Below, one piece after another: positions 42,988-44,694 of a DNA stretch of 64,000 bases. The position numbers and the translations under genes were made by a program. The stretch lies in NCBI RefSeq assembly GCF_003334815.1, contig NZ_QOWO01000008.1. One strand, given 5' to 3'. The DNA is from Escherichia coli (GTDB lineage: Bacteria > Pseudomonadota > Gammaproteobacteria > Enterobacterales > Enterobacteriaceae). Below the pieces are notes generated by a model. That model made no database searches and had not been told where the DNA came from. It saw only the letters and a list, made by a program, of their open reading frames with translations. Positions within the stretch are counted from its first letter, which is position 1; the number at the start of each line of letters is the position of its first letter.

Positions 42988-43239
42988 TTAATGGGATTCA
43001 CCCTGTGGGGTAAACTTGAGTTCAATAAGCGCGATGGCTTTTTGGATTGCCCGCATGGTGACCGGGTCTGCGGCGGCGGGATGGTTAGTAAAGTCGATAT
43101 TCTTCAGCTGACTGGACATTTTTTCACGAACTTCAACGGGCGCGATTACATCGAGAACATCCAGAATTTGTTTGATAACCAACTGGCAAGCAACCACATC
43201 AGAAACCAATTCCTGATCGGCATTCAGCGGCTGGGACAT
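42988..43239 (-). CDS. yecJ: Uncharacterized protein YecJ
   Basis: 83 aa ORF in conserved position. Confidence 0.8.
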
Positions 43240-43353
43240 CGTAAACTCCTGATAGCATTTTGAAAGCCGTTATAGTAGCGACTTCACATCTTCAGCGATA
43301 GTCACATCCACCGTCATCAGGACACAAAAAAACCTGCCGGAGCAGGTTTTTTG

Positions 43354-43440
43354 TTATCGGAACATATTGCCTGGCGGTACGTCTTTGAACGTCTTGCAAT
43401 AGTTATTGAACATACTTTTCAGGATTTTGCGCAGTTTCAT
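43354..43440 (-). CDS. azuC: Small membrane protein AzuC (28 aa), part of the dual-function AzuCR RNA
   Basis: Minus-strand translation MKLRKILKSMFNNYCKTFKDVPPGNMFR followed by TAA. Confidence 0.75.
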   Translation of the reverse strand: MKLRKILKSMFNNYCKTFKDVPPGNMFR

Positions 43441-43702
43441 CGCGGCACTCCGACCATTTGTTATACAGGTGTTATTGTCTTTGCGCTTATAATATGACAA
43501 CCATCACAAAAATCAATCTTTATGTGATACAAATCACATAAATACCCCTTTAATGTTATAAAAATGATAATCAAAAAACAGCCCCCCTATTTCTGACACC
43601 TACAGATGGCAAGAAATAGCGCCTGCCAGGCGTCTTTTCCGGCCATTGTCGCAGCACTGTAACGCGTAAAATAGTGCTTTCTCTTACTCTTCTGGCTGGA
43701 CC

Positions 43703-44026
43703 ATGAGACTTCTGATTCTGACTCTTTCATTAATAACGCTGGCGGGGTGTACGGTTACTCGCCAAGCCCATGTGAGCGAAGTTGACGCGGCAACAGGTAT
43801 TGTACGGTTAGTTTATGACCAGGCTTTTTTGCAGCATGCCCATACCGATCGTTATGTCAGTCGCGGGATCGCCGATCGCGCATGCCAGCAGGAAGGCTAT
43901 ACCCACGCGGTCCCCTTTGGTCAGCCAGTAGGCAACTGTAGCCTTTTTGCGGGTTCCTTATGTTTGAATACGGAATTCACTTTGTCATATCAGTGCCATC
44001 ATTCCGCCTTCCCTGTCTTTCTCTAA
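43703..44026 (+). CDS. yecR: Lipoprotein YecR
   Basis: 107 aa, lipobox LAGC. Confidence 0.9.
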   Translation: MRLLILTLSLITLAGCTVTRQAHVSEVDAATGIVRLVYDQAFLQHAHTDRYVSRGIADRACQQEGYTHAVPFGQPVGNCSLFAGSLCLNTEFTLSYQCHHSAFPVFL

Positions 44027-44196: not shown

Positions 44197-44694
44197 ATGC
44201 TGAAACCAGAAATGATTGAAAAACTTAATGAGCAGATGAACCTGGAACTGTACTCTTCACTGCTTTATCAGCAAATGAGCGCCTGGTGCAGCTATCATAC
44301 CTTCGAAGGTGCTGCCGCGTTCCTGCGCCGTCACGCCCAGGAAGAGATGACGCATATGCAGCGTCTGTTTGATTACCTGACTGATACCGGCAATTTACCG
44401 CGTATTAATACCGTTGAATCTCCGTTTGCTGAATATTCCTCACTTGATGAGTTATTCCAGGAAACCTATAAACACGAACAATTAATCACCCAGAAAATTA
44501 ACGAACTGGCTCATGCTGCAATGACCAATCAGGACTACCCAACATTTAATTTCCTGCAATGGTATGTTTCTGAGCAGCATGAAGAAGAGAAACTGTTCAA
44601 ATCGATTATTGATAAATTAAGCCTGGCAGGCAAAAGCGGCGAAGGTCTGTATTTTATCGACAAAGAACTCTCTACCCTCGACACACAAAACTAA
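44197..44694 (+). CDS. ftnA: Ferritin FtnA
   Basis: 165 aa from [21 protein letters not shown]. Confidence 0.95.

Follow-up and report, generated by a model that had tools for sequence, protein, structure and literature searches.

The azuC/AzuCR locus in an Escherichia coli contig: a conserved 28-codon gene within a base-pairing RNA

The window analysed here, a stretch of 64,000 nucleotides from Escherichia coli contig NZ_QOWO01000008.1 (assembly GCF_003334815.1), carries the small-protein gene azuC on the minus strand of the gap between yecJ and yecR (Table 1), where the original prediction, made from the sequence without database searches, had placed it. The open reading frame (ORF) extends from an ATG at 43440 to a TAA at 43356-43354, 87 nt with the stop codon, and its re-translation yields exactly the 28-aa peptide that had been proposed, MKLRKILKSMFNNYCKTFKDVPPGNMFR. 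The peptide, already assigned to AzuC in the original prediction, scores 75.9 bits (E = 1.3e-21) against NF033642, the curated NCBIfam equivalog for 'stress response protein AzuC', well above its whole-protein cutoff of 30 bits, with AzuC residues 2-27 aligned on profile positions 1-26 of 26. The K-12 record NC_000913.3, with which the window is collinear (window coordinate = NC_000913.3 coordinate − 1,944,519), has azuC (b4663, 'small regulatory membrane protein AzuC') at 1987873..1987959, coordinates that correspond precisely to this ORF, and also carries, over azuC, the ncRNA azuR (b4434, 'small regulatory RNA AzuR') at 1987843..1988001; the outer neighbours beyond yecJ and yecR in that record are ftnB and ftnA. 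The interval first assigned to the locus, 43300-43500, encloses the whole annotated transcript, and the promoter and regulator sites reach beyond it, to about 43557.

Table 1. Coordinates of the azuC/AzuCR locus and of its neighbours in the window
Feature	Position	Strand	Basis and remarks
yecR	43703..44026	+	flanking gene
NarP site	43541..43557		reported in PMC12266141
PhoP site	43527..43544		reported in PMC12266141
FNR site	43520..43539		reported in PMC12266141
Upstream CRP-type palindrome TGTGAtttgtaTCACA	43523..43538	-	centred at -48.5 from the start site; half-sites conserved, spacer not (59 sequences)
-35 hexamer TTGATT	43511..43516	-	promoter scan; conserved across genera
Second CRP-type site TGTGAtggttgTCATA (TGTGA-N6-TCATA)	43493..43508	-	centred at -18.5; half-sites conserved, spacer variable
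-10 hexamer TATTAT	43489..43494	-	promoter scan, conserved; 16-nt spacer from the -35 hexamer
AzuCR/IsrB/IS092 transcript (RefSeq azuR b4434, 159 nt)	43324..43482	-	NC_000913.3 annotation 1987843..1988001
FnrS target CACCUGU	43465..43471	-	25-31 nt upstream of the ORF; position from PMC8915982
Shine-Dalgarno GGAG	43448..43451	-	7 nt before the ATG; near-invariant in 59 and 41 sequences
azuC CDS (28 codons + TAA)	43354..43440	-	sequence, NF033642, RefSeq b4663, dN/dS
Candidate pairing segment (AzuCR nt 73-114)	43369..43410	-	best computed complementarity to cadA (-15..+24) and galE (+19..+44)
Intrinsic terminator AAAAAACCUGC-UCCG-GCAGGUUUUUUU	43326..43352	-	fold; almost invariant across genera
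yecJ	43239..42988	-	flanking gene

By itself, a reading frame of 28 codons could have arisen by chance, and the 3 kb surrounding azuC are overlapped by 49 ORFs of 20 aa or longer; the case for the gene therefore rests on homology and conservation, namely the NCBIfam match, the identity with the annotated K-12 gene, and, in 58 other species, the retention of the ORF and its pattern of variation by codon position. Over a 471-bp query that includes the ORF, K-12 strains match at 100% identity, and this region was found in 5,420 of the 5,426 complete E. coli genomes. The gene had been held to be too short for standard gene callers: it is indeed short (87 nt), but current RefSeq annotation does include it, both for the MG1655 reference and for the 12 E. 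coli records listed; in the latter it neighbours yecR and bears the PGAP label 'azuC: stress response protein AzuC'. The sole mismatch to NC_000913.3 in the 3 kb compared is a G for A at window position 44451, 1 kb from azuC, a synonymous change in ftnA codon 85 (GAG vs GAA, both Glu); the resequenced MG1655 record CP032667 likewise lacks this G. The window reads as K-12-like, yet it differs from the MG1655 reference.

The DNA of the locus, the peptide, the neighbours, the transcript ends, the promoter and the terminator are identical to those of AzuC/AzuCR (IsrB, IS092) of E. coli K-12 (b4663/b4434; PMC8915982), with zero differences at the locus itself and one synonymous ftnA base 1 kb off. 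Taken as a whole, the locus is almost certainly the azuC/AzuCR of E. coli K-12, that is, a small protein and a base-pairing RNA with published regulation. It is already known, being RefSeq-annotated and the subject of a curated NCBIfam model, a dedicated mechanistic paper and follow-up promoter work, and nothing in it is new. Nevertheless, a real 28-codon gene proved recognisable from raw sequence in a genome scan, and the present analysis adds modest value with respect to the distribution of the gene, the purifying selection acting on it, its conserved operator and FnrS sites, and its lineage-specific losses. The identity, anatomy, synteny, protein-level purifying selection and conserved promoter, operator, ribosome-binding site, FnrS site and terminator were computed here; GlpD binding, cadA and galE repression and chaperone binding are taken from the literature (PMC8915982), as is the regulation (PMC8915982, PMC12266141).

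AzuCR is a discrete short transcript unit, with its own -35 and -10 hexamers and an intrinsic terminator, all of them conserved, and with an ncRNA feature in RefSeq. In the proposed mechanism, a sigma-70 promoter with two CRP-type sites would produce a transcript of ~160 nt ending at the intrinsic terminator. The published start, at 1988001 (PMC8915982), corresponds to the annotated 5' end at window position 43482, 6 nt from the end of the -10 hexamer. Given this common 5' end, the lengths of 159 nt in RefSeq and 164 nt in PMC8915982 place the 3' end either within the GU that follows the U-run or 5 nt past it (43324 vs ~43319). The regulatory alignment (59 sequences, -170 to +120) consists of conserved islands with variable spacers between them. 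In the upstream palindrome, the half-sites TGTGA (43538-43534) and TCACA (43527-43523) together form a perfect CRP-consensus palindrome, whereas the second CRP-type site overlaps the promoter spacer and the -10 hexamer, a placement that would suit repression by promoter occlusion. Predicted CRP sites in the azuCR promoter also appear in the Fig. 1A legend of PMC8915982, and CRP represses azuCR transcription when glucose is absent (PMC8915982). Ekdahl et al. (2025; PMC12266141) describe FNR, PhoP and NarP as further azuCR repressors, and the upstream CRP-type palindrome coincides with the reported FNR site and overlaps the reported PhoP site. Transcription would, in this scheme, be repressed by CRP and, according to the 2025 study, also by FNR, NarP and PhoP. 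Farther upstream, in the divergent yecR-azuC spacer, a terminator-like hairpin, CGCCTGGCAGGCG then CTATTTCTTG, occurs on the minus strand at 43620-43632; it is probably a chance match, because there is no upstream minus-strand gene there to terminate.

At the other end of the unit, the terminator follows directly upon the azuC stop codon and is of the textbook intrinsic type, a hairpin with a U-run. A consensus terminator scan missed it; the probable reason is that most of the T-run is paired with the A-run. Neither the K-12 AzuCR fold (z-score -1.48) nor RNAalifold on 41 sequences (11 pairs, essentially zero covariation) revealed conserved RNA structure other than the terminator. An Rfam covariance-model search of the azuC region returned zero families at the gathering score and only sub-threshold look-alikes matching the terminator hairpin, namely STnc370 (33.4 bits vs a gathering score of 54), rsmX and RNAI, and gave no matches in seven related loci; Rfam 15 appears to be without a model for AzuCR. 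The notion that STnc370 might be a Salmonella remnant of AzuCR was rejected, as the Salmonella loci gave no STnc370 match. The sub-threshold STnc370 matches lie on both strands (43294-43358, plus; 43321-43404, minus) because the A-run/stem/T-run arrangement is symmetrical, and the azuC terminator could, for the same reason, act bidirectionally.

Conservation of the gene was assessed in 80 loci from 80 Enterobacteriaceae species genomes, anchored on the neighbouring YecJ and representing the best 80 of 224 YecJ-bearing stretches. TBLASTN of the AzuC peptide, the check proposed at the outset, gave a match directly upstream of yecJ and on the same strand in 58 of these species, and the frame, 27 or 28 codons long, is unbroken in all 58 azuC loci; the lack of conservation in related genomes, or of a ribosome-binding site, that would have spoken against the gene was thus not observed, GGAG being conserved at the appropriate distance from the ATG. 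Among the best 80 loci, azuC is present in Escherichia (including E. albertii and E. whittamii), the Citrobacter amalonaticus/sedlakii group, Enterobacter, Lelliottia, Leclercia, Silvania, Kosakonia, Huaxiibacter, Pseudescherichia, Pseudenterobacter and Pseudocitrobacter. Judged by these matches, azuC ranges more widely, over at least ten genera, than the 'limited number of enteric bacteria' given in the literature. The orthologues differ at their ends: seven of those from Enterobacter and Lelliottia start with GTG (L022, L035, L036, L037, L042, L045 and L046); the first two codons in both Pseudocitrobacter loci (L081 and L082) are CAA-CGC, the start being likely shifted to Met3; and outside Escherichia and one C. 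amalonaticus locus (L012) AzuC has 27 aa and is without the C-terminal Arg.

Across 54 distinct azuC coding sequences, the numbers of variable columns at codon positions 1, 2 and 3 are 10, 11 and 26 of 27, with a mean pN/pS of 0.16 and a Jukes-Cantor dN/dS of about 0.1. From this codon-position pattern and dN/dS value it follows that azuC is a real protein gene, and the frame displays what we read as a clear signature of purifying selection on the protein. The RNA was first found as a small RNA (sRNA) candidate (PMC8915982) and short ORFs are plentiful by chance, so that one could still regard the transcript as a purely non-coding sRNA (IsrB/IS092) in which the 28-codon frame arose by chance. 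The codon-position pattern, together with the published detection of tagged AzuC and the ribosome binding cited in PMC8915982, excludes this possibility for practical purposes, and so do the frame kept intact in 58 of the best 80 loci with its conserved GGAG and the NF033642 match. On the opposite strand, an antisense 48-aa ORF (43351..43497, plus) was rejected as a conserved protein because its first codon positions fall on variable sites. As a protein gene, azuC would be translated from the ~160 nt RNA into a 28-aa cationic, amphipathic protein. For residues 1-20, the helical hydrophobic moment comes to 0.53, compared with a shuffle mean of 0.23, a value reached by 1.4% of shuffles, and the net charge is +6; both fit the published description of AzuC as an amphipathic helix. 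The protein is membrane-associated, co-purifies with GlpD and increases dehydrogenase activity (PMC8915982).

In the window, the azuC ORF is followed by the terminator and then by yecJ, 114 nt after the ORF, which encodes an uncharacterised DUF2766 protein. The same-strand adjacency of the two genes, 65-120 nt apart, recurs in the 58 azuC-bearing species among the best 80 of 224 and persists without yecR, ftnA and ftnB nearby, for instance, in L012 and L056; it might point to a functional link between AzuC and YecJ. Such constancy amid changing neighbours, combined with a terminator lying between the two genes, is also what would be seen if azuC were a leader peptide, or attenuator, of yecJ. 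We regard this as highly improbable: transcription attenuation entails mutually exclusive terminator and anti-terminator structures, and an alternative anti-terminator was neither predicted nor conserved in minimum-free-energy and consensus folds, so that an attenuator of this type was rejected; selection acts on the whole peptide rather than on a run of regulatory codons; and Northern analysis shows a discrete 164-nt RNA (PMC8915982). Furthermore, yecJ probably has its own promoter. A TACTAT located at 43272-43277 (minus), about 33 nt upstream of the yecJ ATG and downstream of the azuC terminator, is invariant in six genera, including those without azuC, and is for this reason probably the -10 hexamer of that promoter.

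Turning from the protein gene to the control of its mRNA, the 5' untranslated region (5' UTR) contains a block, ATAACACCTGCATAACA, that is conserved across genera and holds CACCUG(U/C), the complement of the first seven nucleotides of FnrS, GCAGGUG (FnrS sequence from NC_000913.3). Translation of AzuC is repressed by FnrS (PMC8915982); under anaerobiosis, FnrS would pair just upstream of the ribosome-binding site and block AzuC synthesis. Because accessibility is not taken into account in our local duplex scan, the published 5'-end site was outranked there by regions of FnrS that are structured.

The further claim that the transcript also acts as a base-pairing sRNA agrees with Raina et al. 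(2022; PMC8915982), who reported that AzuCR represses cadA and galE by direct pairing, compensatory mutations restoring repression for both, that cadA-gfp expression is higher in an azuCR deletion, and that AzuCR co-immunoprecipitates with Hfq and ProQ. The published cadA and galE repression was measured mostly with plasmid overexpression, and the pairing region lies inside the ORF, so that translation and pairing compete (PMC8915982). Mechanistically, a stretch within the azuC coding sequence would base-pair with the cadA and galE mRNAs and thereby repress both, in competition with the synthesis of AzuC from the same RNA. We searched for this stretch with a sliding 26-nt local scan in which accessibility is ignored and which replaced whole-molecule duplex folding, the latter having returned meaningless 100-nt 'duplexes'. 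The best cadA duplex has -24.2 kcal/mol at cadA -15..+10, and the AzuCR-cadA pairing includes an exact 8-nt complement, UAUUGCAA; the best galE duplex joins AzuCR nt 89-111 to galE +19..+44 at -19.2 kcal/mol. Both lie inside the azuC ORF, and the segment that spans them (Table 1) is the probable AzuR base-pairing region. In the shuffle control, however, shuffled AzuCR did as well in 4 of 40 cases for cadA and in 19 of 40 for galE, and hence the two interactions are not established by sequence alone; the evidence for the riboregulator role in cadA and galE repression is the published set of compensatory mutants (PMC8915982).

The evolutionary behaviour of the pairing segment is relevant in this context. 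Its third-codon positions vary freely among genera, and the segment TATTGCAAGACGTTCA is kept within Escherichia species. Because the synonymous sites vary outside Escherichia, the base-pairing function may be narrower in distribution than the AzuC protein. Pushed further, the same observation would make azuC essentially a protein gene, the AzuR pairing being weak, overexpression-dependent or a recent, Escherichia-specific addition. Strong protein-level selection across at least ten genera is in keeping with such a view, as are the synonymous freedom of the putative pairing segment, a cadA and galE complementarity indistinguishable from shuffles in the local-duplex model, the zero conserved RNA structure apart from the terminator, and the use of overexpression plasmids in the reporter assays (PMC8915982). 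The restoration of cadA and galE repression by compensatory mutations and the rise of cadA-gfp in the azuCR deletion (PMC8915982) argue against it, as does the retention of TATTGCAAGACGTTCA within Escherichia, and we consider this view unlikely, albeit far from fanciful. The reading preferred for the locus as a whole remains that of a small protein and a base-pairing RNA. Its two functions may differ in age: in a tentative joint scenario, which we hold to be possible if still rather doubtful, azuC would be an old Enterobacteriaceae gene paired with yecJ across at least ten genera, the AzuR activity on cadA and galE would have come later and be restricted to Escherichia, and the FnrS site in the 5' UTR would represent an ancient RNA-level control. 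When the sRNA function of AzuCR arose is a testable question that the comparative data serve to frame.

In SgrS, the coding and pairing regions are separate. SgrS/SgrT of E. coli resembles AzuCR in its action on carbon metabolism and in that one short transcript encodes a small protein and pairs with mRNAs (PMC8915982); AzuCR differs from the previously characterised dual-function RNAs in the overlap between its pairing segment and its ORF, with the resulting competition between translation and pairing (PMC8915982). Spot 42/SpfP is likewise a small RNA of carbon metabolism that is repressed by CRP and codes for a very small protein (PMC8916003, PMC8915982); it is set apart from AzuCR by another sequence, another protein and a different protein target, CRP rather than GlpD.

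The distribution of azuC is also marked by absences. Among the best 80 loci, TBLASTN did not find azuC upstream of yecJ in Salmonella enterica subsp. arizonae and diarizonae, C. koseri, the C. freundii complex, Buttiauxella and one Escherichia locus, L004. In the latter (Escherichia sp. MOD1-EC7003, 2231-2501), a deletion of ~690 bp took yecR and nearly all of azuC, leaving the terminator and the last few bases of the gene, and the ftnA start now lies 270 bp from the yecJ start. In the Salmonella and C. koseri loci L013 (S. enterica subsp. arizonae, region 1695-2440), L028 and L009, the azuC position is occupied by a 212-aa ORF, which we take, by eye, to encode an RpiB/LacA-type sugar-phosphate isomerase. 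Downstream of this ORF, L013 retains a sequence resembling the azuC 3' end and terminator (CGCCAGGCAtgATGTgC...AAAAAATCTG), a remnant which suggests that azuC was ancestral and was then displaced.
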